A stretch of 48,428 nucleotides of DNA from Dehalococcoidia bacterium (GCA_030665785.1 DAOUZA010000003.1:1-48428); one strand, 5' to 3'. Positions 2,834 through 19,351 are shown, numbered from the stretch's first letter. Notes: generated from the sequence alone by a model not told the origin. Numbers and translations: made by a program.

Positions 2834-3871
2834 ATGAAAACAGGATTGGTTTATGACCCAATTTATCTGGAGCACGATACTGGCGCTCATGTGGAGAATT
2901 CCCAGAGGTTAGTATCCATAATGTCGCATTTGGAGGAGACCGGGATGAAAGAAAAACTTATCTCGTTTTCTCCCCGCCCTGCCTCAATAGAAGAGGTAGA
3001 AATGGTGCATGCTCCAGAATATGTTTCTCGCATTAAAGGCACGGCTGAAAGTGGTGGTGGATGGCTTGACCCTGATACTGTTATGTGCCCGAGGTCCTAT
3101 GAAGTGGCTTTATATGCTGTCGGTGGGTTGCTAACCGCGGTAGAAAAAGTAATGGCAGGTGAGGTTGATTCTGCTTTTGCTTTAGTTAGACCTCCAGGAC
3201 ACCATGCCACCTGCAATAGAGCAATGGGATTCTGCATTTTCAACAATGTAGCTATTGCAGCTAAATTCGCCCTGGCTAATTTTGATATTGAGCGCATCCT
3301 TATTGCTGATTTCGATGTTCACCATGGCAATGGTACTCAGGAGACTTTTTACGGTGACCCCAAAGTCCTCTACTTCTCTACCCATGAATATCCCTTTTAT
3401 CCCGGGACTGGCTGGATAGATGAAACTGGAACTGGTGAGGGAAAAGGATATACCGTTAATTTTCCAATGTCTGCCGGCTGGGGAGATGCGCAATACCTGA
3501 GAGCTTTCAACGAGGTTTTCGTTCCAGTAGCTAAGAAATTCCAACCACAGCTTATTCTTGTTTCCGTTGGCTTTGACCCTCACTGGGCTGACGACATAGC
3601 TATGATGCAGATGAGTGTTATTGGTTTTGCCCAGATTGTTAAGATACTAAAACAGCTCGCTGTTGAGTTATGCCAAGGACGTCTTATCCTTACCTTGGAA
3701 GGGGGCTACAACCTTCAGGTAGCTGCTTCAGGGACAAAGGCTATTTTTGATGTTCTTCTGGGCAACACGGAGATAGTAGACCCGTTGGGCAAGGCGCCGC
3801 TGACAAGAGAAACCGTTGATTTTGAACAGCATCTCAAAAGAGTAAAGGAAACACATCATATAGAAGATTGA
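2834..3871 (+). CDS. Zn-dependent histone deacetylase family protein (AcuC/AphA-like)
   Basis: RPPGHHA, GFCIFNN, DFDVHHGNGTQ, LEGGY motifs. Confidence 0.92.
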   Translation: MKTGLVYDPIYLEHDTGAHVENSQRLVSIMSHLEETGMKEKLISFSPRPASIEEVEMVHAPEYVSRIKGTAESGGGWLDPDTVMCPRSYEVALYAVGGLLTAVEKVMAGEVDSAFALVRPPGHHATCNRAMGFCIFNNVAIAAKFALANFDIERILIADFDVHHGNGTQETFYGDPKVLYFSTHEYPFYPGTGWIDETGTGEGKGYTVNFPMSAGWGDAQYLRAFNEVFVPVAKKFQPQLILVSVGFDPHWADDIAMMQMSVIGFAQIVKILKQLAVELCQGRLILTLEGGYNLQVAASGTKAIFDVLLGNTEIVDPLGKAPLTRETVDFEQHLKRVKETHHIED

Positions 3872-3897
3872 ACAGACGTCTGGATATATTATGTAAA

Positions 3898-5094
3898 CTA
3901 TCCTCTATTCTTCGGCAGAAAACGTGAGAAAACCTCGTTTCCCAAAAGTTTGCCTTTAGTGGTTAGCCTGATTCCATGTTCATTTTTAACTATCAAACCC
4001 AGCTCAACCAGCTCGTTAATTTGTTGTTGGTGATAAATAGAATAAAGCTCCACTCCAAAGCGACGAGTAAAGTTAGCGAGATTTACTCCTTCCTCTAATC
4101 TCAAGCCCAAGATCACCGATTCAGCAATTTCTAAATCCCTGTCAATGTGTTCAATGTTATCCACCAAGGGACTATTAAAATATGGCTGTTGAGACGCTTT
4201 TGTTTTCGTATTGCTGCTGTGCTTTATGTATTCTATTGGCGATAAAACATTAGCCCAGCGATAACCACCCAAATAAGAATGAGCACCAGCACCAAAACCC
4301 AAATAAGGTTCATTTTTCCAATAAGTTAAGTTGTGTTGACATTCCTTCCTGGGCAATGCCCAGTTGGATATCTCATAGTGGTTATAGCCTTCTTTAGCCA
4401 GCTCATGTTTAGCCAACAAATACATGTCAGCTGCCAGGTCAGCGTTGGGTTTTGGCAGCGAACCCGATGCTACAGCATTCGCCAATGGTGTACCAGGTTC
4501 CAGGGTGAGTGGATAAAGTGAAAGATGCTCAGGATTGAGCTTTATCACCTCAGCAAGATTATTTTGCCAATCGTTAATTGTCTGCCGTGGCAAAGCGTAT
4601 AGCAAATCGATATTGATATTCTCAAATCCTGTCTCTCTGGCTGTTAAATAAGCTTCTTTGGCTTCAACTGCTGAGTGAACTCTTCCCAGCAGCTTGAGTT
4701 CACTATCGCTGAAGCTTTGCACCCCTAAACTAAGCCGATTAACTCCGATCTGTTTCAATTGGGTCAGAAAGGATTGGTCAATGGTTCCAGGATTTGCTTC
4801 CAAAGTCACTTCCAGAGCCGGTGGCATATTGAAAAGCTCCCTGCAGGTCTTCAGGATACAGGATACTGCGTTCATGGGAAGCAAGCTAGGTGTGCCTCCA
4901 CCAAAATAAATTGTTGCTATTTCAAACTGCCAAATACCCTTGGCATAAAGCTGCATTTCCTCCTTTAAGGCCTCTACATATTGAGGAATAAGCCAGCTTA
5001 ACCCAGCATAGGAGTTAAAATCACAGTAGTAACACTTAGATAAGCAAAAAGGGATGTGAAAGTAAAGGCTCAATTTCCGTGGTTTGCCCATCAA
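3898..5094 (-). CDS. hemW: Radical SAM heme chaperone HemW (HemN-like)
   Basis: LYFHIPFCLSKCYYCDFN (CxxxCxxC), FGGGTPS, YEISNW, HNLTYW. Confidence 0.88.
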   Translation of the reverse strand: MMGKPRKLSLYFHIPFCLSKCYYCDFNSYAGLSWLIPQYVEALKEEMQLYAKGIWQFEIATIYFGGGTPSLLPMNAVSCILKTCRELFNMPPALEVTLEANPGTIDQSFLTQLKQIGVNRLSLGVQSFSDSELKLLGRVHSAVEAKEAYLTARETGFENINIDLLYALPRQTINDWQNNLAEVIKLNPEHLSLYPLTLEPGTPLANAVASGSLPKPNADLAADMYLLAKHELAKEGYNHYEISNWALPRKECQHNLTYWKNEPYLGFGAGAHSYLGGYRWANVLSPIEYIKHSSNTKTKASQQPYFNSPLVDNIEHIDRDLEIAESVILGLRLEEGVNLANFTRRFGVELYSIYHQQQINELVELGLIVKNEHGIRLTTKGKLLGNEVFSRFLPKNRG

Positions 5095-6008
5095 GCAGCT
5101 TTTTTAGGAAAGGAGAGCCAGGGAAACATTTGCCTCCATTCCCCTTTCTCCCAAACAACTAAGAGGGGGGCGGCGATGCATAGTGAGCTATAAGTACCGG
5201 CGAGTAACCCGATTAATAGTGCTAATACAAAGTAGTGAATCGTGGCTCCACCGAAGAGCAACAATGCTAAAATAACACAAAGTGTGGTTAGGGAAGTATT
5301 CATTGAGCGGGCTAGAGTCTCTGTAAGACTAGAATTCACCGTTACAGCAAAGTCAGGGCTGAGGCCTCTAGTCCTATTTTCTCTAATGCGGTCAAACACA
5401 ACTACAGTATTATTGATACTGTAGCCTACAACGGTGAGCACTGCAGTAATAAACATAGCGTTAACTTCCACATTAGCCACTTGACCAAGAATAGCGAAGA
5501 CCCCCACAACAATGAGCACATCATGAACAAGAGCGATAATGGCACCGGTACCCCAGCGGAAAGGTTTAGGCATGCGGCGGAACGCCCAGGCAATGTAAAT
5601 TAACATAGCCACAGCAGCTATTATCACGGCAATGCCAGCATTACGTGCTGTGTCTTTGGCTATGACAGGAGAAACTGTGTTATAGTCAAGAACTAAAATC
5701 TCTGTATCCAAGCCAGTTTCTAATCCACTAATTAGAGATTGCCTTTCATCAACCGATATTTCCTTGGTGCGGATGAAAAAATTGTCCTCACTCCTCTGAA
5801 TAATGGCTTCAGGATATCCCAGAGCAGTCAACTCTTGACGTAACTGATTCTGCTCTACCTGTGGAGTAAAACTAAGGGTCATGGATGTACCACCAGTGAA
5901 GTCAATCCCAGGCTGCAGCTTAAAAGCGGATAATGAGATTATCATTACGATAATCATTATGGCTGAGCCGAGGAAAAACCACTGTTTTTTTCCTATAAAG
6001 TCAATCAT
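5091..6008 (-). CDS. secF: Protein translocase subunit SecF
   Basis: GIDFTGG, HDV, GYSINNTVVVFDRIRE, GTYSS. Confidence 0.95.
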   Translation of the reverse strand: MIDFIGKKQWFFLGSAIMIIVMIISLSAFKLQPGIDFTGGTSMTLSFTPQVEQNQLRQELTALGYPEAIIQRSEDNFFIRTKEISVDERQSLISGLETGLDTEILVLDYNTVSPVIAKDTARNAGIAVIIAAVAMLIYIAWAFRRMPKPFRWGTGAIIALVHDVLIVVGVFAILGQVANVEVNAMFITAVLTVVGYSINNTVVVFDRIRENRTRGLSPDFAVTVNSSLTETLARSMNTSLTTLCVILALLLFGGATIHYFVLALLIGLLAGTYSSLCIAAPLLVVWEKGEWRQMFPWLSFPKKAA

Positions 6009-7339
6009 ACCCTAACCCCATAAGCTGCTGGATTAGTAACTAGGCGGCCGCCAACGACAAAACGAAGGAAAGTCCGAGTGATAATAATGGCGGTAAACAT
6101 GCTTAATGCCACACCAATAAACAAAGTCAGGGCAAAACCTCTAACCATAAAGGCACCAAATGTACCACCAAGCCAGAAAAGGACGGCACAAGCAATAAAG
6201 GTGGTGATGTTACTGTCACGAATAGCTGTCCAGGCACGGTTAAACCCAGTCTCTACAACGGCACCCAAGGTGCGTCCAGAACGCAGTTCCTCCTTCATTC
6301 GCTCAAAAATAAGAACATTGGCATCAACAGCCATACCTAAAGATAAGATGAGTGCCGCAATGCCAGGCAAAGTTAAGGTCATCGGGAAAAAGCTAAAGAT
6401 AGCTAAAAGCAAAACACCGTAAATCCCCAGGCTGAAACAAGCTACTAACCCGAGTAAGCGATAATAGGCAATCATAAATAGCAATAACAATACCAGCCCA
6501 ATTCCACCAGCAATCATGCTTTTCCTTATAGAATCAGCTCCTAAAGAAGCATCTACGTCTCGCTGGTCAATAAGCGTCAATGGAACATCTAAAGAACCAG
6601 AGTTAAGCTGTATTGCTAAGTTCCCAGCTTCATCTATGGTGAAACGACCTTTTATGTACCCCCGCTCGGTAGCAGTAATAGTCGCTTGAACCACCGGGTC
6701 TGATATCATTTCATTATCTAAAAAGATGGCTAATCTTTTGCCTACATTTCTCTTCGTTATTTGCTCAAAGAGATATGCTCCCTCGCTGTCCCATTCTAGA
6801 AAAACTACTGGACCTTCATAGGGGTCTATGTCGCGGTAAGCACGGTTGAGGTATTTGCCAGTGAGCTCCCTCACTTGACCATCTTTGCCACTAGCCTTGG
6901 CAGGTTCGTCCTGGTAAATCGGGTTCCCCATTTCATCAAGCATTGGGGTTCCATTTGCATTGAACTTCTGCTCTCTAAAGTCGAGCAGAGCAGTCTTACC
7001 AATGAGCTTGATTGCCTCGGTAATGTTTTCCACACCGGGGAGTTGAACTAATATTCGGTCAGTTCCCTGCTTTTGAACTGTAGGCTCGGTAACCCCATAT
7101 TCATTAACCCTTCGCTGAATTTTCTCTATTACTGATGCCATAGCAGTCTGCTCACTCATAGAGGGGTCTTTCTGAGACAGATTGGCTTCATAAAGCAATT
7201 GGCTGCCACCTTTAAGGTCAAGCCCTAACGTTAGTCCATTAGGACCGAGTAACTTCGTATTTACTGGTAGTATTGACCATAAGGCAAGACCAAAAAGCAC
7301 AATAATGAAAATTAATAAGTAAATATTTTTGCTGCTCAA
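6005..7339 (-). CDS. secD: Protein translocase subunit SecD
   Basis: LGLDLKGG, GVTEP, GMAVDANVLIFER, DSNITT. Confidence 0.95.
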   Translation of the reverse strand: MSSKNIYLLIFIIVLFGLALWSILPVNTKLLGPNGLTLGLDLKGGSQLLYEANLSQKDPSMSEQTAMASVIEKIQRRVNEYGVTEPTVQKQGTDRILVQLPGVENITEAIKLIGKTALLDFREQKFNANGTPMLDEMGNPIYQDEPAKASGKDGQVRELTGKYLNRAYRDIDPYEGPVVFLEWDSEGAYLFEQITKRNVGKRLAIFLDNEMISDPVVQATITATERGYIKGRFTIDEAGNLAIQLNSGSLDVPLTLIDQRDVDASLGADSIRKSMIAGGIGLVLLLLFMIAYYRLLGLVACFSLGIYGVLLLAIFSFFPMTLTLPGIAALILSLGMAVDANVLIFERMKEELRSGRTLGAVVETGFNRAWTAIRDSNITTFIACAVLFWLGGTFGAFMVRGFALTLFIGVALSMFTAIIITRTFLRFVVGGRLVTNPAAYGVRV

Positions 7340-8863
7340 TTAACCAACCTTATCCTTCAACGTACGCTTATCCAATTCTACTTGAACTAGAGCTAGCGCC
7401 TCTTTCTTGCTGGTTAGTTCACCACTGGCTTGAGCTTCCTGCACTGAGTCCAGAAGCTCGCCAATCAACGGTCCCGAAGCTAAACCAAAGGTATTAATTA
7501 AATCATGCCCATCAACCAGCTTTGGTGGCAGAACCTTAGCGTGCTGTTTATCATGCTCGGTTAGTATGTAGTTTAGCAACCTGCAATGTTTTTCCCATTC
7601 CGCCATCTCTAACAGAGGTCCACGACTAGCAAGATAGTCAGCCAGGGCTAAAATCAAAATATCAATGCCAACATCGCCGGTATCCCTGAAGTAGCGATAG
7701 ATTGCTCGCTGCGTAGGCATCTCTTTATCCGACATTTGCATTGGGCGGAGATGGTGGTAAACGAGGCTTTCCACCAAATTTATTTCTCGGTTGCTAAATC
7801 GTAGCCTTCCCAAGATAGCCGCCGTCATATCGGCTCCCTGTTTAGTATGACCATAAAAGTGCGTTCTATCGGTATTATCAACAAATTTTGTCCTTGGCTT
7901 GGCAATATCATGGAACAATCCACCCAGTTTAAGCAAGGTTTTGTGAGTGCTACCACTGGATACCTCTTGAGCTAAATGTTCCTTTATACCTTGTGACCAA
8001 GGAGTATCGGTTAATATCTCTTCACTGCCATACTCCCAATCATGCTCCCTGATTAGAAATTCTATCGCTGCTACAGTTTGCAAAGAATGGTCAAATACAT
8101 CCCAAACATGTAATCTAGGTTGTTCTACACCCTTGCCTTCCGCCAATTCCGGGACTAAAGCCAAAAGCAAGCCAAGCTCATCAAGATAACGCAGGTAGTG
8201 GGCGCTGTTAGGCAAATTAACCACCTTAAGCAATTCTTCCCTGATTCTTTCCCCCGGGATTTTGGTGATTAACTCAGAATAATGGCAAATTAGAGCCTCT
8301 GTCTCCGGTTCAATAACGAAATTGAGTTCAGCAGCGAGACGCACTGCTCGCAATAGCCTGGCAGCATCAACCTCGAATATCTTCTTGCTGACACCTCGTA
8401 TAATCTTGTTCCTTAAATCCTTCTCCCCGGAAAAGGGGTCAATAAGTCTCACTCCGGATTGCTTTAGAATCTGTTCATTTTGCTTGGGGCTTCGGCTCAC
8501 CACAGTGATAAATTGTCTAAGCTCAGCAGCCATGGCGTTTATGGTAAAATCACGTCGGGCAAGGTCAGATTCAATGTTATCTGCAAAGGAAGACAAATCA
8601 AGATACCATACTTGTTCACCTTCACTTACCACTACTCTGGCTATCCCATTCACACCGTCTAGCAGCACAAATTTGCCCTCTACGGTCTTGGCTACTTCCT
8701 GGGCTATATTTATTGCGTTACCATTTACAGCAATATCGACGTCATTGGTTTTCCTGCCCAAAAACCAATCACGCACAAAACCTCCCACCGCGTAGCTTTG
8801 ATATTCCTGGCGGTCCAATAGTGAGGATACCTTTTTCAGGATGATAGCCATATCAGTCTGCAT
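7340..8863 (-). CDS. cca: CCA tRNA nucleotidyltransferase / poly(A) polymerase family with HD domain
   Basis: VGGFVRD, DVDIA, DLARRDFTINAMA, HDIAKP; start moved to ATG 8863 because the TTG at 8881 overlaps a predicted -10 box. Confidence 0.85.
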   Translation of the reverse strand: MQTDMAIILKKVSSLLDRQEYQSYAVGGFVRDWFLGRKTNDVDIAVNGNAINIAQEVAKTVEGKFVLLDGVNGIARVVVSEGEQVWYLDLSSFADNIESDLARRDFTINAMAAELRQFITVVSRSPKQNEQILKQSGVRLIDPFSGEKDLRNKIIRGVSKKIFEVDAARLLRAVRLAAELNFVIEPETEALICHYSELITKIPGERIREELLKVVNLPNSAHYLRYLDELGLLLALVPELAEGKGVEQPRLHVWDVFDHSLQTVAAIEFLIREHDWEYGSEEILTDTPWSQGIKEHLAQEVSSGSTHKTLLKLGGLFHDIAKPRTKFVDNTDRTHFYGHTKQGADMTAAILGRLRFSNREINLVESLVYHHLRPMQMSDKEMPTQRAIYRYFRDTGDVGIDILILALADYLASRGPLLEMAEWEKHCRLLNYILTEHDKQHAKVLPPKLVDGHDLINTFGLASGPLIGELLDSVQEAQASGELTSKKEALALVQVELDKRTLKDKVG

Positions 8864-14866: not shown

Positions 14867-14943
14867 GGGCCATTAGCTCAGTTGGTTAGAGCACGGTCCT
14901 GATAAGACCGGGGTCTGTGGTTCGAGTCCACAATGGCCCACCA
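14867..14943 (+). tRNA. tRNA-Ile(GAT), CCA encoded
   Basis: Acceptor GGGCCAT/ATGGCCC, D-arm TAGCTCAGTTGGTTAGAGC, anticodon arm CGGTC-CTGATAA-GACCG, T-loop GGTTCGAGTCC. Confidence 0.97.
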
Positions 14944-15053: not shown

Positions 15054-17240
15054 ATGAAGAGCAATATTGATGTATTTGAACAAGCAGTAATTCGGGCTGA
15101 GAAGCTAAGTCAAGTAGCAAGGAAAGCTGCTGAAGAATCAGCTAAGGTATCTCAAGATGCTGTAACCCGAGCTGAGGAAATTAGCCAAGCGGCTATAGAG
15201 ACCGTTGAGGAAGCAAAGAGAGCATCCCAAGATGCTATAACCCGAGCTGAGGAAATTAGCCAAGCGGCTATGAAAGCCGCCCAAGCATCAATAAAAGCAT
15301 CTCAGGAAGCAATAAGTAAGACTGAAGCATCAGCAGGGGCATTTGAAGAAATAGTAAGCAAGGTTGAAGCATCAGCCAAACTAGTCAAAGATGCCACTGA
15401 AGCATCAGTAAAAGCATCTCAGGAAAGAATAAGCAAGGCTGAGGAAATAAGCCGTGCCACCATGAAAGCCTCTAAGCAAGCAGAAAAAGCATCCCTGGAA
15501 GCCGTGAATAAGATTGAAGAAGTAAGTGGTACAGCTATAGAAGTCGCCGAGGAGGCACGGAGAACATCACAGGAAGCGGTAACTAAAGCCGAAAAAGTAA
15601 GTCAAGAAGCTATAGAGACTGTTGGAGAATCAATAAAAGCATCACAAGAAGCAATAAGCAAGAGTGAAGCATCGATTAAGCTAGCTACGGAAGCTGCAAA
15701 GGCGTCGCAAAGGACATTTGAGGAAGCAATAAACAGAGCTGACGAAGTAAGTAAAACGGCTATGGAGGCTACAGAAGCAGCATCGAGGGTGTTTCAAGAG
15801 GCCATAGGCAGAGCTGATAAGGTAAGCAAAACAGCCATGGAGACTACCACGGCGACAGCAAGAGCATCACAAAAAGCAATAAGCAAAGCTGAAGAAATAA
15901 GCCAGGTAGCTTGGGGAGCGGCTGAAGAGGCAAAAAGGGTGTCTCACGAAACGATGAATAGAGCCGAGAAGGTAAGCCAAGCAGCCAAGGAAACCGCTGA
16001 GGAAGCAAAGAAACTGTCTCAAGAAGCAACAAGCAAAGCTGAAGAAATAAGCCAGGTAGCTTGGGGAGCGGCTGAAGAGGCAAAAAGGGTGTCTCACGAA
16101 ACGATGAGTAGAGCCGAGAAGATGAGCCAAGCAGCTAAGGAAACGTCTGAGGAGGCAAAGAAACTGTCTCAAGAGGCAATAAGCAAAGCTGAGAAGATAA
16201 GCCAAACAGCCACAGAGGCACAGAAAGTATCTCAGGAGACACTAAGCAAGGTTGAACAAATAGGACAAACAGCTACAGAAGCTGCTGGAGAGGCAAGGAG
16301 AGTATCCCAAGAGGCAGAGAACAAAACTGAAGAATTGATTAAATCAGCAAGTAAAGCTGAAGAAGTAAGTAAAACAGCACAGGAAACTGTTGAAACATCT
16401 GCAAAAGCATCTCGGGAAGCGGTGAGTAAAGCTACGAAGGTAAGCAAAGCAGCTATGGAGACTGCTGAAGCATCAGCAAGGGTATTTGAAGAAGCAATGA
16501 GTATGGCTGACAGAGTAAGCAAAGAAGCCAAGGAGATTTCTGAAGCATCAGCAAGAGCAGCTCAGGAGGCAACAGGAAGAGCCGAGGAAATAAGTCAATC
16601 AGCCAAAGAATCTGCCGAAGAGGCAAAGCGAGCATCCTTAGAATCAGCAAACAAAGTTAAGCAAATAAGTCAAGCTATCATAAAGAGCAATGATGAGGCG
16701 AAGAAAGCATCTCAAGAAGCAGTAAGCGAAGCAGAGGAAATAGGCAAGATAGCTAGAGAAAAAGCTGATGAAGCGAAAAAAGCCTCTCAGGAAGCTATAA
16801 ATAAGGCTGGAAAAATAAGCGAAACGGCTAAAGAAGCTGTTGGAAAATCTACACAAGCAGCCAGGGAAGCTGTAATCGCCTCGGTAAAGGCATTCGAGGA
16901 GACAATCAACAGAGCGGAGGAAATAAGCAAATCAGCCAAGAGAGCTGCGATGGCATCAATGCAAATATTTGAGGAGGCAATAAGTAAAGTCGCTGAAGAA
17001 AGCGAGCGAGCTGAAGGGATTGCCGAGTTGCCATCAAAGATGTTTGAGGAAGCGATAAGCGAGGTTGAAATCAGCGAGGAAGAAGAGGAGAAGAAGCCAG
17101 TGAAGCCTAGCAAGGAAATCGAAACGCGTTTGAACCTCCTGGCTAAAATGTATGCTTCAAATAAAGATAAGTATGTTGAGGAAGTTGAAGAAACCGAGGA
17201 GGAAACCCTCGAAGCAAATGATGGGATAGAGGAGGATTAG
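15054..17240 (+). CDS. Uncharacterised 728-aa A/E/K/S-rich repetitive helical (coiled-coil-like) protein with 25-aa repeats and an acidic tail
   Basis: Recurring unit SQEAISKAEEISQAAxExAEEAKKA; no Cys; no Pro until about residue 660; no TM or signal peptide. Confidence 0.8.
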   Translation: MKSNIDVFEQAVIRAEKLSQVARKAAEESAKVSQDAVTRAEEISQAAIETVEEAKRASQDAITRAEEISQAAMKAAQASIKASQEAISKTEASAGAFEEIVSKVEASAKLVKDATEASVKASQERISKAEEISRATMKASKQAEKASLEAVNKIEEVSGTAIEVAEEARRTSQEAVTKAEKVSQEAIETVGESIKASQEAISKSEASIKLATEAAKASQRTFEEAINRADEVSKTAMEATEAASRVFQEAIGRADKVSKTAMETTTATARASQKAISKAEEISQVAWGAAEEAKRVSHETMNRAEKVSQAAKETAEEAKKLSQEATSKAEEISQVAWGAAEEAKRVSHETMSRAEKMSQAAKETSEEAKKLSQEAISKAEKISQTATEAQKVSQETLSKVEQIGQTATEAAGEARRVSQEAENKTEELIKSASKAEEVSKTAQETVETSAKASREAVSKATKVSKAAMETAEASARVFEEAMSMADRVSKEAKEISEASARAAQEATGRAEEISQSAKESAEEAKRASLESANKVKQISQAIIKSNDEAKKASQEAVSEAEEIGKIAREKADEAKKASQEAINKAGKISETAKEAVGKSTQAAREAVIASVKAFEETINRAEEISKSAKRAAMASMQIFEEAISKVAEESERAEGIAELPSKMFEEAISEVEISEEEEEKKPVKPSKEIETRLNLLAKMYASNKDKYVEEVEETEEETLEANDGIEED
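15881..16190 (+). repeat. 150-bp near-perfect tandem duplication inside the 728-aa gene
   Basis: AAGCAAAGCTGAAGAAATAAGCCAGGTAGCTTGGGGAGCG... starts at 15881 and 16031; AAGCAAAGCTGA recurs at 16181. Confidence 0.92.
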
Positions 17241-17351
17241 GGAAAAACAAGGTTACATGGGCAATAAAAGTGGAATTATTTCGGTGTTGGCAGCTAGATA
17301 GACAAAAATTAATAAAATAATATAAGGTATAGAAGATAAAGGAGGAATATT

Positions 17352-17849
17352 ATGGTAGACCCAGAAAAGCGAGTTTCCCCTAATGAGGCAGATGAGGAGG
17401 AAACTGGGCAGAAAACGAAGAAAGTTTCCCAAAAACCCAAACAGGCTATAGAATCCCTTGCTGAAATTCAACAGCGTGCCATGGCAGCTTACGCTGCTTA
17501 TGCTGAGGCGGAACGTCAAGTACAACAAGCCTATAAGGAGCAAGAACAACAAATAGAGAGAGTTTATGAAGACACTAAGCAACAAGCTGCAAAGGTTTGC
17601 GAAGAAAGCATAGTGCAGTCATTGAAAATACGTGATGAAGCTAAACAGCAAGCTGCAAAGGCTTGCGAAGAAAGCATGGCTCAAGCACTAAAAGTTCGCC
17701 AAGAAGCTGAACAACAAGCTAGCAAGGTTTGTGAAGAAAGTATAGCTCAGACATTAAAAATCCGTGAGGAAACTGAACAACAAGCCTGGGAAACCCACAG
17801 TGAAGCTATAGAAAGAACATGGCAGGTCTTTACCAAGAGCACAAAATAA
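17352..17849 (+). CDS. Uncharacterised 165-aa helical protein with three 22-aa repeats, each with one Cys
   Basis: SD AAGGAGG; QQAAKVCEESIVQSLKIRDEAK / QQAAKACEESMAQALKVRQEAE / QQASKVCEESIAQTLKIREETE. Confidence 0.8.
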   Translation: MVDPEKRVSPNEADEEETGQKTKKVSQKPKQAIESLAEIQQRAMAAYAAYAEAERQVQQAYKEQEQQIERVYEDTKQQAAKVCEESIVQSLKIRDEAKQQAAKACEESMAQALKVRQEAEQQASKVCEESIAQTLKIREETEQQAWETHSEAIERTWQVFTKSTK

Positions 17850-17911
17850 GAAAAAACAGGCGCGTTTCTCTGGTTAGTGTGATAAAGCTAATATATTAAG
17901 CCTTTTGTGAA

Positions 17912-19084
17912 TTATAGTAACACAGGGATGTCATTAAAGATTTCTTCGAGTTCTCTGCCACCATATTGTAATCCCTGTCTTGCCTTTATAGCGGAGATTA
18001 AGTCAATCGCTTTGGTGAAGTAATTCGTCACTTTCCCTAGAGCGCCAAAATCAGACAGAATTACAGCAACGTCTACCGATTTTTTTTGCCTAGGATAATC
18101 CCCGCTTCGTATTAAAGCATTCGGGGCTACAGCCTTTAAATTGTCTCCAAGATCCTTGATTATGTCCATATTCATCTCACCAGGCGGGGCAGAAATAAGG
18201 TAGAGAGCTCTTCTCGCACCTTTAGGATCGCATGTGAGTGATAACTCAGTTAAGGCTTTATCCATGGCATGGGCTCCCTTATTGGTCTCAGTTACCTTGT
18301 CCCTGAAATGATTTTTCTTTCCAAGGGGGAGTTTCCTCTGCCGAATTAACGATTTACCTGTGCCAATCGCTGTCCATCCTGCCAAGGTCTGTATTATATC
18401 TCCGGCATCAAGCACCCTTGACCCGATATACTTTGGCTTTGTCTCCTCACCGGCGCAAAGTAGATTGTAAAAAGGTTCAACCAGGCGAGCATTGATCCTC
18501 GCCAGATTTTCTGCAATGGAAGAATCTTTCTTGATATACCTCTGGTTATCAACAAGAATTATAGCGTCGGCTACTAAGTATACCGATTTAAGGCAAATAG
18601 CAGTGTTGTAAATAGTTCTGCTTTCAGTTGTTTCTTCCTGGCGAAAAGGGAGAGCGATGAGGTTATAAACCGGCTTACCAACATAGCGCTCTTTTAACAG
18701 TCGGGTTAATACCCCTATTGAGCCTGACCCTGTACCACCAGCAGCACCAGCAATCAATAAGAAACCATCTGCCTCAGGGAATTGCTCTGCTGTTCTTATG
18801 GCATCTATAATCTTGTCGCCATCTTCCCTTGCTATTTCAGCACCGAGTTCACTTATCTTACCTACTCCGTGTCCTTCGGTCTTCCGCCCCCCAACAACAA
18901 TCCTGTGTCTATAATCAGGTTTGATGTTGGATAGTCCGCTCAAATCAGCAATATCAGTATTGACAGCGAAGGCACCGGCAATCACATTAAGCCCTCGCAC
19001 AACCTGCGCTCTCTTATTAAGCCAGGCAAACCTATCTACAATTCTCCCACCACATTGACCTAAACCTATAACTATTAACTTCAT
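17912..19084 (-). CDS. Tubulin/FtsZ superfamily GTPase, CetZ-like
   Basis: GLGQCGGRI, AVNTD..DL.GL, GHGVG...ELGAEIA, GAAGGTGSG signature, VDN, AGE...VLDAGDIIQTLAG, RSGDYP. Confidence 0.88.
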   Translation of the reverse strand: MKLIVIGLGQCGGRIVDRFAWLNKRAQVVRGLNVIAGAFAVNTDIADLSGLSNIKPDYRHRIVVGGRKTEGHGVGKISELGAEIAREDGDKIIDAIRTAEQFPEADGFLLIAGAAGGTGSGSIGVLTRLLKERYVGKPVYNLIALPFRQEETTESRTIYNTAICLKSVYLVADAIILVDNQRYIKKDSSIAENLARINARLVEPFYNLLCAGEETKPKYIGSRVLDAGDIIQTLAGWTAIGTGKSLIRQRKLPLGKKNHFRDKVTETNKGAHAMDKALTELSLTCDPKGARRALYLISAPPGEMNMDIIKDLGDNLKAVAPNALIRSGDYPRQKKSVDVAVILSDFGALGKVTNYFTKAIDLISAIKARQGLQYGGRELEEIFNDIPVLL

Positions 19085-19092
19085 TTGATTTT

Positions 19093-19121
19093 ATTTTAGC
19101 TAAATCTATATGATGTGTCAA
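19093..19121 (-). promoter_or_regulatory. sigma70-type promoter of the CetZ-like gene (probably leaderless)
   Basis: TTGACA-17 bp-TAAAAT, then 8 nt to the ATG, no SD. Confidence 0.7.
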
Positions 19122-19164: not shown

Positions 19165-19326
19165 CTTTATGTCATTGCGAGGAGCGGTAGCGACGAAGCA
19201 ATCTCATGCCCCCCGGGATTGCCACGTCTTTGGCTCGCAATGACACCCTTTATGTCATTGCGAGGAGCAGTAGCGACGAAGCAATCTCATGCCCCCGGGA
19301 TTGCCACGTCTTTGGCTCGCAATGAC
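19165..19326. repeat. Two tandem copies (83-bp period) of a palindromic REP/RPE-like element
   Basis: GTCATTGCGAG...GCAATC...GATTGC...CTCGCAATGAC at 19171-19244 and 19254-19326. Confidence 0.9.
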
Positions 19327-19351
19327 GTATGGGAGTTTAAATTACCCAAGG

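Follow-up and report, generated by a model that had tools for sequence, protein, structure and literature searches.

Organization of the locus

The window is the whole 48,428-nucleotide stretch of DNA from a Dehalococcoidia bacterium (GCA_030665785.1 DAOUZA010000003.1:1-48428), numbered from its first nucleotide. Three open reading frames, here called genes A, B and C, lie within it between a tRNA-Ile gene and a ribosomal cluster.

14867-14943, tRNA-Ile, preceding gene A
15054-17240, + strand, gene A, ORF of 728 aa
17352-17849, + strand, gene B, ORF of 165 aa, with the ribosome-binding sequence AGGAGG upstream
17850-17911, no strand, gap of 62 bp separating the stop codon of B from that of the convergent C
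17912-19084, - strand, gene C, ORF of 390 aa, CetZ-like tubulin-superfamily GTPase
19093-19121, - strand, sigma-70-like site TTGACA-17-TAAAAT just upstream of C, 11/12 consensus matches

Our ORF calls agree with the coordinates given in the initial annotation, and their strands bear out the convergent arrangement of C with respect to A and B that it described. Because of this arrangement A and B cannot share a transcript with C. In a simple scan of the gap between B and C, no hairpin resembling a terminator was detected. The region as first delimited ends at 19121 and so covers the candidate sigma-70-like site of C, which is a consensus match only. Beyond C the genes rpsI, rplM, truA, rplQ and rpoA run on the minus strand from 19352 onward.

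The host genome is a 1.03-Mb Dehalococcoidales MAG that is 94.8% complete, and it carries a separate ftsA-ftsZ pair on contig C11, apart from the C locus. Within this 94.8%-complete assembly we found no SEDS protein, no PBP transpeptidase, no SepF and no true MreB, the only matches to the last being a DnaK-like ORF and FtsA; nor is there a match to DivIVA (PF05103) in A, in B or anywhere in the genome. This Dehalococcoidia host is apparently without peptidoglycan, as had been supposed.

C is a CetZ-type tubulin

The principal elements of C are as follows.

18536-19078, - strand, GTPase domain, residues 3-183, Pfam Tubulin
18722-18739, - strand, T4 signature G116-GTGSG-G121, invariant in 23/23 Dehalococcoidia CetZ-like sequences
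18005-18523, - strand, CetZ_C domain, residues 188-360, with T7-loop residues D226 and D229 and a long M-loop-like insertion
17915-17932, - strand, extreme C-terminal peptide D-I-P-V-L-L, consensus (D/E)(I/L)PxLL

C matches both Pfam Tubulin (PF00091; 1.7e-30, 107.1 bits against a cut-off of 33, residues 3-183) and CetZ_C (PF21011; 7.7e-18, 65 bits against a cut-off of 21.6, residues 188-360), the latter a model that matches only Haloferax volcanii among 14 control genomes. Its best matches among PDB sequences are 4b46_A (1.4e-41), 4b45_A (3.8e-23) and 3zid_A (3.5e-14), compared with 6.7e-10 for the best FtsZ chain (2r6r), near 1e-6 for most others and near 1e-6 or weaker for tubulin chains. 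Judged by its sequence, C is a CetZ-type tubulin that is closer to solved CetZ than to FtsZ or tubulin; the nearest solved structures are those of archaeal CetZ1 and CetZ2, and the CetZ-like identity first assigned to it is upheld. Assignment of C as FtsZ was rejected, since it scores 56 bits against a cut-off of 295.2 for the NCBIfam ftsZ equivalog and the genuine ftsA-ftsZ pair lies elsewhere.

Residue D229 (nucleotides 18398-18400) is invariant in 23/23 sequences and aligns to E218 of 4b46_A, which we take to be the residue changed in GTPase-dead CetZ1 mutants. Given its intact nucleotide-binding and T7 residues, and its family membership, C is expected to polymerise with GTP. In the C-terminal peptide P387 and L389 are likewise invariant in 23/23 sequences, drawn from all paralogue clades. 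Since (D/E)(I/L)PxLL is common to all of these, even those lacking A and B, it is not the A/B-specific interface.

A and B are helical repeat proteins

The elements of the two repeat proteins are the following.

15081-17012, + strand, rod of A, approximately residues 10-653, about 25 copies of a 25-residue repeat
17013-17111, + strand, linker of A, residues 654-686, Glu/Pro/Lys-rich, predicted non-helical, pLDDT <50
17127-17153, + strand, motif R692-L-x-x-L-x-x-M-Y700 of A, within predicted helix 687-714, candidate docking peptide
17487-17567, + strand, 'tyrosine ladder' of B, AYxAYxEA...AY...Y, A46-Y72, tyrosines 11 residues apart
17820-17837, + strand, C-terminal motif of B, W157-x-V-F-T-K, W157 invariant in 11 aligned B sequences

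From N to C terminus A comprises a long helical rod, a linker, a conserved C-terminal helix and an acidic tail. The protein is acidic (112 K+R versus 146 D+E in 728 aa) and rich in Ala, Glu, Ser and Lys, with just 14 Gly and 3 Pro in its 728 residues. Tandem Repeats Finder returns units of 75 and 150 nt in the DNA, and the self-identity of the protein is 0.367 at a lag of 25, 0.32 at 50 and 0.25 at 75; the 25-residue repeats reported for A are thus real. The hydrophobic periodicity is 3.56 residues, equal to 25/7, so that each repeat corresponds to seven helical turns. An AF2 model is almost wholly helical at low confidence (pLDDT 53.8), with helices predicted at 2-88, 93-243, 251-429, 445-532, 540-574, 580-653 and 687-714. 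Periodic, helical in this low-confidence model and poor in Gly and Pro, A has the character of a long coiled-coil rod, whose length would be about 95 nm if it formed one continuous helix.

The number of repeats varies strongly among A orthologues in a 14-sequence alignment, while R692, L693, L696 and M699 of the C-terminal motif are invariant, and Y700 nearly so, in the same 14/14 sequences. The family consensus, which follows the flexible linker, is R[LM]xx[LIM]xxM[YF]. Among all ORFs of the loci L043-L089 this pattern is confined to A-type proteins (16/16 hits). The distant A-like proteins of genomes G093, G053 and G184 also carry the motif, and the copy in G134 is matched by a looser pattern only.

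For B the AF2 model (pLDDT 85.1) has a disordered segment, residues 1-35, followed by a single helix of 129 residues (36-164). Tandem Repeats Finder identifies a 66-nt unit in 3.3 copies, and self-identity is 0.308 at a lag of 22 and 0.24 at a lag of 11. The 22-residue repeats originally described are therefore genuine, and there is an 11-residue period as well, in keeping with a hydrophobic periodicity of 3.68 residues, or 11/3. A46, Y47, A49, Y50, A53, A60, Y61 and Y72 are invariant in 11/11 sequences, and each B-type ORF identified has Wx[VI][FY] among its final 15 residues. A profile of the B family matches 342 representative proteins at E<=1e-3; ten of these were looked up, and all were unnamed or hypothetical metagenome proteins save two evident chance matches.

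Neither A nor B matches a family above cut-off in Pfam or NCBIfam, and A has no PDB homologue, its sole PDB matches being designed helical bundles. Together with the helical AF2 models this agrees with their description as unrecognised helical repeat proteins. All three proteins had been said to lack a transmembrane segment. By crude hydropathy this holds for A and B, which have no transmembrane-like segment (top 19-residue Kyte-Doolittle means of 0.52 and 0.28, respectively); C peaks at 1.67 over residues 161-179, inside its Pfam Tubulin match.

An 11-residue periodicity is typical of LEA group 3 proteins and of lipid-binding amphipathic helices. Since B has such a period, and both proteins share an Ala/Glu/Lys/Ser/Gln-rich composition and are encoded convergently to C with no common transcript, A and B might be hydrophilin-, LEA- or apolipoprotein-like proteins serving in stress protection or as a lipid or membrane coat, functionally unrelated to C. 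We think this improbable. In Pfam neither protein matches an LEA, apolipoprotein or phasin family, even at E<=0.1, and the A motif has a low hydrophobic moment (0.25, rank 664 of 718 windows). Specific protein contacts are indicated by the invariant terminal motifs; short invariant motifs at the ends of fast-evolving repeat proteins look as expected of docking sites. Moreover, adjacency to one CetZ clade is kept while the flanking genes change, as described below.

A and B are linked to one clade of CetZ-like genes

How general is this arrangement? A full-length orthologue of C (at least 63% identity) is present in 16/24 relatives of family f1. In 16/16 of these B adjoins C on the opposite strand, and in 15/16 A comes after B, the contig ending at that point in the remaining one (G010). 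In the eight f1 genomes without that C orthologue there is no clear A or B beside a CetZ gene; among them G016 carries, at another site, a B-like gene of 30% identity, and the A matches of G012 and G020 are all weak. In the host's own genus and in G024 the locus is flanked by the ribosomal cluster and OAD-beta/RecX, and elsewhere the flanks include a CCA-adding enzyme (L047), RmuC (L075), GAPDH (L053) and YjeF/NnrD (G022).

In a quick IQ-TREE phylogeny of 72 Dehalococcoidia CetZ-like proteins, with loci chosen by us, SH-aLRT support only, long branches in family f4 (L081, L082, L083) and no archaeal sequences among its rows, one clade of 27 rows (SH-aLRT 100) holds every copy that has a convergent A- or B-type neighbour. 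It spans at least seven families (f1, f4, f18, f50, f65, f71 and f75) and includes G093 and G134, each of them a genome on a single contig. In 25 of the 27 rows an A- and/or B-type gene lies convergently within two ORFs 3' of the CetZ-like gene; in the other two (L082 and L083) the contig ends, each with a C-terminal fragment of B. Outside the clade such a neighbour is found for 0/45 CetZ-like copies. The initial annotation held that homologues of the repeat proteins failing to cluster with the CetZ-like gene in related genomes would count against the proposal; A and/or B accompany the one clade in 27/27 and the others in 0/45, an outcome that favours the proposal. It also conceded that the case rested on adjacency alone. 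This no longer applies, since the linkage extends over a 27-row clade with differing flanks and so is more than the adjacency of genes in one genome. Related genomes are not independent cases, and neighbouring genes can stay together through common descent.

The supposed three-gene unit fares less uniformly. The pairing of C and A is the conserved core; B is accessory, being absent from some C-A pairs, restricted to some members of the clade, and found also where there is no CetZ gene. Among 12 other genomes with B hits, three (G016, G270 and G250) have a B-like gene with no CetZ gene within 1.5 kb. Those of G016 and G270 are paired with a DivIVA-like coiled-coil protein, the DivIVA matches of these partners being sub-threshold (15.9 and 24.5 bits, respectively, against a cut-off of 28). 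To judge from these pairs, B may partner primarily with a coiled-coil protein instead of the tubulin.

Other clades of CetZ-like genes have neighbours of their own. At L064 a TM-anchored DivIVA-like repeat protein comes after a CetZ-like gene of another clade, and sister clades adjoin either dnaX-ybaB-recR or endonuclease III together with a protein having a histone-H1-like Lys/Ala/Pro tail.

Two further explanations should be weighed against these neighbourhoods. A, with or without B, might be an independent IF-like or DivIVA-like scaffold that acts in the same process as C without binding it, the linkage reflecting shared regulation or chromosomal history. The long rod of A and its non-heptad periodicity, in which it is like bacterial coiled-coil-rich proteins, would fit such a scaffold, as would the pairs without CetZ in G016 and G270 and the anchored protein at L064. 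We nevertheless consider it unlikely, because a linkage as strict as that of the clade is difficult to account for unless this tubulin paralogue and A are specifically related in some way. Alternatively, the module might act on the nucleoid, in chromosome positioning or segregation, with A as a tether, and not in cell shape. TubZ has such a segregation role for plasmids, and the dnaX-ybaB-recR and histone-H1-like neighbours of the sister clades are suggestive. In A and B, however, no DNA-binding domain is recognisable and acidic residues outnumber basic ones, and CetZ proteins, the closest characterised relatives, act in shape and motility according to the available text of PMC9856176, so that a nucleoid role seems to us a poor prospect.

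A putative cytoskeletal module

We incline, a little beyond an even judgement, to the view that C and A, with B in some lineages, constitute a cytoskeletal module specific to a lineage of wall-less Dehalococcoidia; binding, polymer formation and a role in shape are each putative. In such a module A would be a homo-oligomeric coiled-coil rod of about 95 nm, whose linker presents the short C-terminal helix R-L-x-x-L-x-x-M-Y as a putative peptide for docking to the C polymer or to a shared partner. B, a predicted helix of about 19 nm with an 11-residue period, could be an accessory adaptor or bundler added by some lineages. A filament of C with A and B as scaffold or cross-linker might assemble under the membrane and, alongside the separate FtsA-FtsZ pair, serve cell shape, envelope organisation or positioning.

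A bolder form of this proposal is possible, and we advance it tentatively: this one orthologous subfamily of CetZ-like tubulins may have co-evolved with the giant A protein, docked through RLxxLxxMY, as a two-component cytoskeleton of tubulin and MAP-like protein that shapes disc-like peptidoglycan-free cells. If so, the remaining CetZ-like paralogues, with their links to a TIG-domain surface protein, dnaX or an AAA+ protein, would be parallel specialisations within an expanded bacterial tubulin toolkit. The available text of PMC8163811 reports that in D. mccartyi BTF08 an 'FtsZ/Tubulin GTPase' and a nearby hypothetical protein are abundant in disc-shaped cells of pure culture, and that the same two proteins are lower or undetected in barrel-shaped cells of co-culture.

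Comparison with known systems

The best solved relatives of C are CetZ1 and CetZ2 of Haloferax volcanii (4b46, 4b45), which share its GTPase and CetZ_C domains. CetZ1 has the T7 acidic residue at the matching position (E218, against D229 in C), and both proteins have a long insertion resembling an M-loop and a short hydrophobic stretch at the very C-terminus; rod formation by CetZ1 is reported to need both of the latter (bioRxiv 10.1101/2024.04.08.588506). In contrast to the archaeal proteins C belongs to a bacterial host, and its T1 loop is GQCGG. The accessible text of PMC9856176 describes CetZ as archaea-specific and places archaeal cetZ genes near those of nucleotide and cofactor (F420) biosynthesis, a sugar epimerase and type IV pili. 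These neighbours differ from A and B, and that text has 0 occurrences of the word 'coiled'. The presence of CetZ-like genes in Dehalococcoidia has been reported before: Santana-Molina et al. 2023 (PMC9871819) list Chloroflexota-Dehalococcoidia sequences among 'CetZ-like', 'paraphyletic' groups, and note that neighbours of archaeal 'tubulin-like' genes that are themselves of unknown function mostly have coiled-coil regions. For the Dehalococcoidia sequences its available text does not name a conserved family of partners, a motif or a linkage confined to one clade, and we found no description of a conserved partnership of A and B with CetZ in the portions of the literature accessible to us. That partnership suggests a hitherto undescribed bacterial cytoskeletal module.

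Crescentin, FilP and Scy resemble A in being long rods of non-heptad periodicity with no enzymatic domain and a proposed role as shape scaffolds. No homology of A to any of them was detected in Pfam, NCBIfam or PDB sequences, and the 51-residue unit of Scy and FilP differs from the 25-residue repeat of A, with its period of 3.56. None of these families is known to be strictly linked, at the genetic level, to a tubulin paralogue.

FtsZ polymers are bundled or tethered by helical or coiled-coil proteins such as ZapA/ZapB, EzrA and SepF. The components themselves differ, in that A and B match none of these regulators in Pfam or NCBIfam, C fails the ftsZ model, and A is far longer than ZapB and is without the TM anchor of EzrA. 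Yet the proposed module resembles these systems in its general plan, a tubulin-superfamily polymer with helical accessories and recognition through short conserved peptides.

Architecture of the locus and its host genome

The genes of two helical repeat proteins, A and B, lie head to tail and are met by the convergent gene of a CetZ-like tubulin, C. The ORF listing agrees with the three-gene locus as it was initially annotated.

Features of the locus (A, B and C from the ORF listing)
14867-14943, tRNA-Ile, upstream of A
15054-17240, + strand, gene A, 728 aa
17352-17849, + strand, gene B, 165 aa
17912-19084, - strand, gene C, 390 aa
Downstream of the module, - strand, rpsI, rplM, truA, rplQ and rpoA

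The stop codons of B and C are 62 bp apart, and an OAD-beta-type decarboxylase subunit (identified by Pfam) is also encoded upstream of the module. A plasmid segregation system of the TubZ type can be rejected, since the locus is set amid chromosomal housekeeping genes and is without a DNA-binding partner. In a 94.8%-complete assembly of 1.03 Mb and 64 contigs, the window corresponds to contig C5, and the nearest public relatives of this genome are MAGs labelled Dehalococcoidia or Dehalococcoidales.

Between C and rpsI (19166-19330) there are two tandem copies of an element of ~83 nt, composed of two half-modules each of ~35-40 nt. Across the 1.03-Mb genome there are 49 matches to the element or to its halves, often close to contig ends, and the element is present at very high depth in four metagenome runs. 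A search of Rfam gave no match, and it looks like a dispersed repeat of the REP or MITE kind.

The tubulin and the division genes of the host

The assignment of C as a CetZ-like tubulin is borne out. Its scores are 107 bits with Pfam Tubulin and 65 bits with CetZ_C, each far over cut-off, and it falls under the cut-off of the NCBIfam ftsZ equivalog (56 versus 295 bits). Among solved structures its closest sequence matches are to 4b46_A (1.4e-41), 4b45_A and 3zid_A; FtsZ chains come no closer than 6.7e-10, and most FtsZ and gamma-tubulin chains are at ~1e-6. GGTGSG and D229, the latter aligned to E218 of 4b46_A, are invariant in an alignment of 23 Dehalococcoidia CetZ-like proteins, in which an extreme C-terminal (D/E)(I/L)PxLL sequence is conserved in every CetZ-like paralogue clade. 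PF21011 is found in 60 of 301 sampled Dehalococcoidia genomes, and among 14 control genomes it matched Haloferax volcanii alone.

The host carries ftsA and ftsZ as a distinct pair on contig C11, with an FtsZ that ends in the canonical LDVPSFLRR peptide. In the 94.8%-complete assembly we found no SEDS protein (FtsW/RodA), PBP transpeptidase, SepF or DivIVA, nor a true MreB, for which the sole matches were a DnaK-like ORF and FtsA. Just one protein matches Mur_ligase_M. At that level of completeness this inventory fits a cell free of peptidoglycan, and the host class appears to lack both peptidoglycan and MreB.

Proteins A and B are predicted repeat rods with conserved ends

The 25-residue repeats of A and 22-residue repeats of B that had been read from the sequence are seen both by Tandem Repeats Finder (units of 75 and 150 nt in A, and 66 nt in B) and in protein self-identity, which is maximal at a lag of 25 (0.367) and its multiples in A, and at lags of 22 (0.308) and 11 (0.24) in B. 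The hydrophobic power spectra have their maxima at 3.56 residues (25/7) for A and 3.68 (11/3) for B. Since these periodicities differ, the two rods are unlikely to pair lengthwise with each other, and more probably each would self-associate. A is composed of 20% Ala, 18% Glu, 11.5% Ser and 11% Lys, with just 3 Pro and 14 Gly. Its model is almost wholly helical at low confidence (pLDDT 53.8), with helices to residue 653, a non-helical linker (654-686), a further helix (687-714) and then a disordered acidic tail. B is modelled with good confidence (pLDDT 85) as a single helix from 36 to 164, a lone helix that would match any coiled coil. The proposal that A and B are without a transmembrane segment stands by a hydropathy window, a crude measure, which reveals none in either protein.

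For neither protein does any Pfam or NCBIfam family reach its cut-off, and comparison with PDB sequences gave designed helical bundles and chance matches only, with no natural solved structure. A cluster look-up of 10 B-profile matches returned unnamed or 'hypothetical' metagenome proteins, and two that evidently matched by chance, an insect homologue of BRCA2 (2164 aa) and a protein whose name assigns it a PAS domain. A and B might be amphipathic or stress proteins unrelated to the tubulin, which is one of the main rival explanations.

A has a conserved motif near its C-terminus. The number of repeats differs greatly among the orthologues; in all 14 sequences R692, L693, L696 and M699 are unchanged, and Y700 is nearly invariant. 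The pattern R[LM]xx[LIM]xxM[YF] was matched 16 times among all ORFs of loci L043-L089, each time in an A-type protein. B conserves a ladder of tyrosines (Y47, Y50, Y61 and Y72), and W157 close to its C-terminus. Where a repeat protein is otherwise free to change, short invariant motifs at its ends have the appearance expected of docking sites, and we regard those of A and B as candidates for that role. Membrane targeting by an amphipathic C-terminal helix of A is rejected; at 0.25 its hydrophobic moment is low, ranking 664th among 718 windows, and the residues are invariant rather than merely amphipathic, so that a protein-docking motif is preferred.

Linkage of A, B and C in related genomes

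How general is the association? We searched 40 close relatives, among them the 24 genomes of family f1. A full-length C orthologue, at least 63% identical, is present in 16 of the 24, and in all 16 B lies beside it on the opposite strand. A adjoins B in 15; in the other, G010, the contig ends there. The eight f1 genomes that lack this C orthologue have no clear A or B genes, apart from a B-like gene of 30% identity at another place in G016 and weak matches to A in G012 and G020. The flanks of the module vary by lineage. They are the ribosomal cluster and OAD-beta/RecX in the genus of our own genome and in G024, and otherwise include the CCA-adding enzyme (L047), RmuC (L075), GAPDH (L053) and YjeF/NnrD (G022).

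With a profile of B we recovered the family from 13 of the 301 genomes sampled in the class. In eight of the 12 other than our own a convergent CetZ-like gene lies beside B, in three (G016, G270 and G250) B-like genes have no such neighbour, and G078 has weak matches without the C-terminal motif. The B-like genes with no CetZ gene nearby are at L086/L101 (G016:C19), L100 (G270:C114) and L098 (G250:C6). They are followed in G016 and G270 by a DivIVA-like protein of ~350 aa, below threshold (15.9 and 24.5 bits, respectively), and in G250 by a protein of 331 aa whose C-terminus has a zinc ribbon.

The pairing of A with C extends further. We inspected the surroundings of CetZ-like genes in 19 regions picked by hand. 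In four of them, all from distant genomes, an A-like protein (441-900 aa) is encoded convergently and shares the period of A, the hydrophobic period being 3.57-3.59 in the two that were measured. The A motif is present in those of G093 (f50), G053 (f18) and G184 (f65), and G134 (f50) has a looser variant, accepted only by a wider pattern. B is absent beside all four. The f50 genomes G093 and G134 are complete single contigs, and the A-C pair is present in both. The distant A-like genes of f18, f50 and f65 had escaped the protein-based genome search and were revealed only by inspection of the CetZ neighbours; thus the A counts of 0/10 in f2 and 0/3 in f3 are no evidence of absence.

The genes of A and B adjoin a single CetZ-like clade

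A tree was calculated for the 72 distinct CetZ-like proteins of all fetched loci (quick IQ-TREE, SH-aLRT support only, midpoint root), in which the long branches of family f4 were flagged. It contains one clade of 27 members with support of 100. For 25 of these an A- and/or B-type gene, recognized by composition and terminal motif, lies no more than two ORFs away on the 3′ side and in the opposite orientation, and at the remaining two (L082 and L083) the contig ends with a C-terminal fragment of B. By the same rule there is no such neighbour for any of the 45 proteins outside the clade. An earlier tree of 47 proteins gave the same picture. The adjacency from which a tubulin and scaffold system had been proposed is therefore found throughout one clade of CetZ-like genes in this survey, and chance proximity does not account for the A/B/C locus.

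The sister clades each have their own conserved neighbours. A second paralogue, ~50-55% identical to C, lies directly downstream of and co-directional with an IPT/TIG-domain protein at L078 (G002:C11, 7803-10636), L079 (G004:C24, 2696-5504), L087, L088, L114 and L121. That protein is mostly of ~520-560 aa, with forms of 272 aa in L114 and 864 aa in L121, and this clade may couple a tubulin to a surface protein; neither partner was found in our own genome. At L121 (G049:C24, 2702-9003) three tandem CetZ-like genes lie beside the 864-aa TIG-like protein, two of them just 31-32% identical to C.

Another clade is found beside dnaX at L053 (5992-9940), L105 (G093, 3153-8648) and L118 (G053). ORFs of the size of ybaB and recR follow dnaX in L053 and L105, with Pfam confirmation in L053 only. 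At L049, L053, L055 and L069 the paralogue of this clade lies across A, which is thereby placed between two CetZ-like genes. At L110-L116 (f2 and f3; for example L112, 5837-8330) a divergent paralogue, 38-43% identical to C, is in an apparent operon, with a protein of 167-171 aa upstream in six of the seven loci, and downstream, also in six of seven, a 436-470-aa protein with weak likeness to DnaX-type AAA+ ATPases.

In the clade of L061-L067 and L070-L074 endonuclease III is directly upstream, preceded by a superoxide dismutase gene. One or two genes downstream of the tubulin, L061, L063, L065-L067, L070 and L072-L074 have a conserved protein of 240-300 aa with a C-terminal Lys/Ala/Pro-rich tail like that of histone H1. 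In L064 (6001-8613) the CetZ-like gene is followed after 19 bp by a co-directional gene for a 472-aa protein. This protein has an N-terminal hydrophobic segment and long coiled-coil repeats, judged by eye to be of ~110-120 residues, and it scores 33 bits with Pfam DivIVA, for which the cut-off is 28.

Occurrence in public sequencing runs

A 5416-nt contig from the metatranscriptome run X22 is ~92% identical to the window, spanning 16249-19114 and rpsI at a word depth of 2195. It covers the 3′ half of A, then B and C, and continues to rpsI. Short contigs within the A repeats have depths of 962-1494. These data are contigs alone, from which strand, transcript ends and expression level cannot be read, and the library may contain DNA, so that they show only that the locus of a relative is present in an RNA library. 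DNA nearly identical to 15054-19121 occurs in metagenome runs labelled as marine sediment, cold seep and tar pit, with word shares of 0.98 down to 0.32; habitat labels were disregarded for runs with small shares.

Discussion

We have moderate confidence in a functional link between A, B and C, which is the best-supported reading; the gene linkage is observed, and binding, polymerization and function are what we infer. A polymer of C would work with A as its dedicated long coiled-coil partner, B would be a short helical accessory protein in some lineages, and the module would operate alongside FtsA-FtsZ in a cell that has no wall. The other two main rivals differ from this on contact and on place. 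The A/B scaffold might co-function with C without binding it, or the module might act at the nucleoid.

A strictly linked partner family with a candidate docking motif provides concrete protein pairs that can be tested, and if G093 and G134 are cultured organohalide-respiring strains the pair is open to experiment there. The module is also relevant to the way in which bacteria without a wall determine their shape, and to the way in which filaments of the tubulin family gain accessory proteins.

In the literature on CetZ, on tubulins of Dehalococcoidia and Chloroflexi and on coiled-coil cytoskeletons we found no description of this module, and the parts of the CetZ literature consulted name no direct structural partner. 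In disc-shaped D. mccartyi an 'FtsZ/Tubulin GTPase' and a nearby hypothetical protein are abundant, according to the parts consulted of Kruse et al. 2021 (PMC8163811), and both are reduced in barrel-shaped cells of co-cultures. For CetZ1, rod formation needs the tip of the M-loop and a hydrophobic C-terminal tail, as stated in the consulted part of a preprint (10.1101/2024.04.08.588506). Brown and Duggin 2023 (PMC9856176), in the sections consulted, treat CetZ as specific to archaea and describe neighbourhoods of other kinds. In Santana-Molina et al. 2023 (PMC9871819) 'Chloroflexota-Dehalococcoidia' is already among the groups listed with CetZ-like sequences, which their CetZ_C HMM matches, and the authors observe that unknown genes near archaeal tubulin-like genes often encode coiled coils; the text consulted, figures and supplements aside, names no partner family for the bacterial sequences. 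C is a new member of this published CetZ-like group, and its strict clade-specific pairing with the A family and the A motif appears to be undescribed. CetZ has been treated as an archaeal cytoskeletal family, and this bacterial class contains several clades of CetZ-like paralogues.
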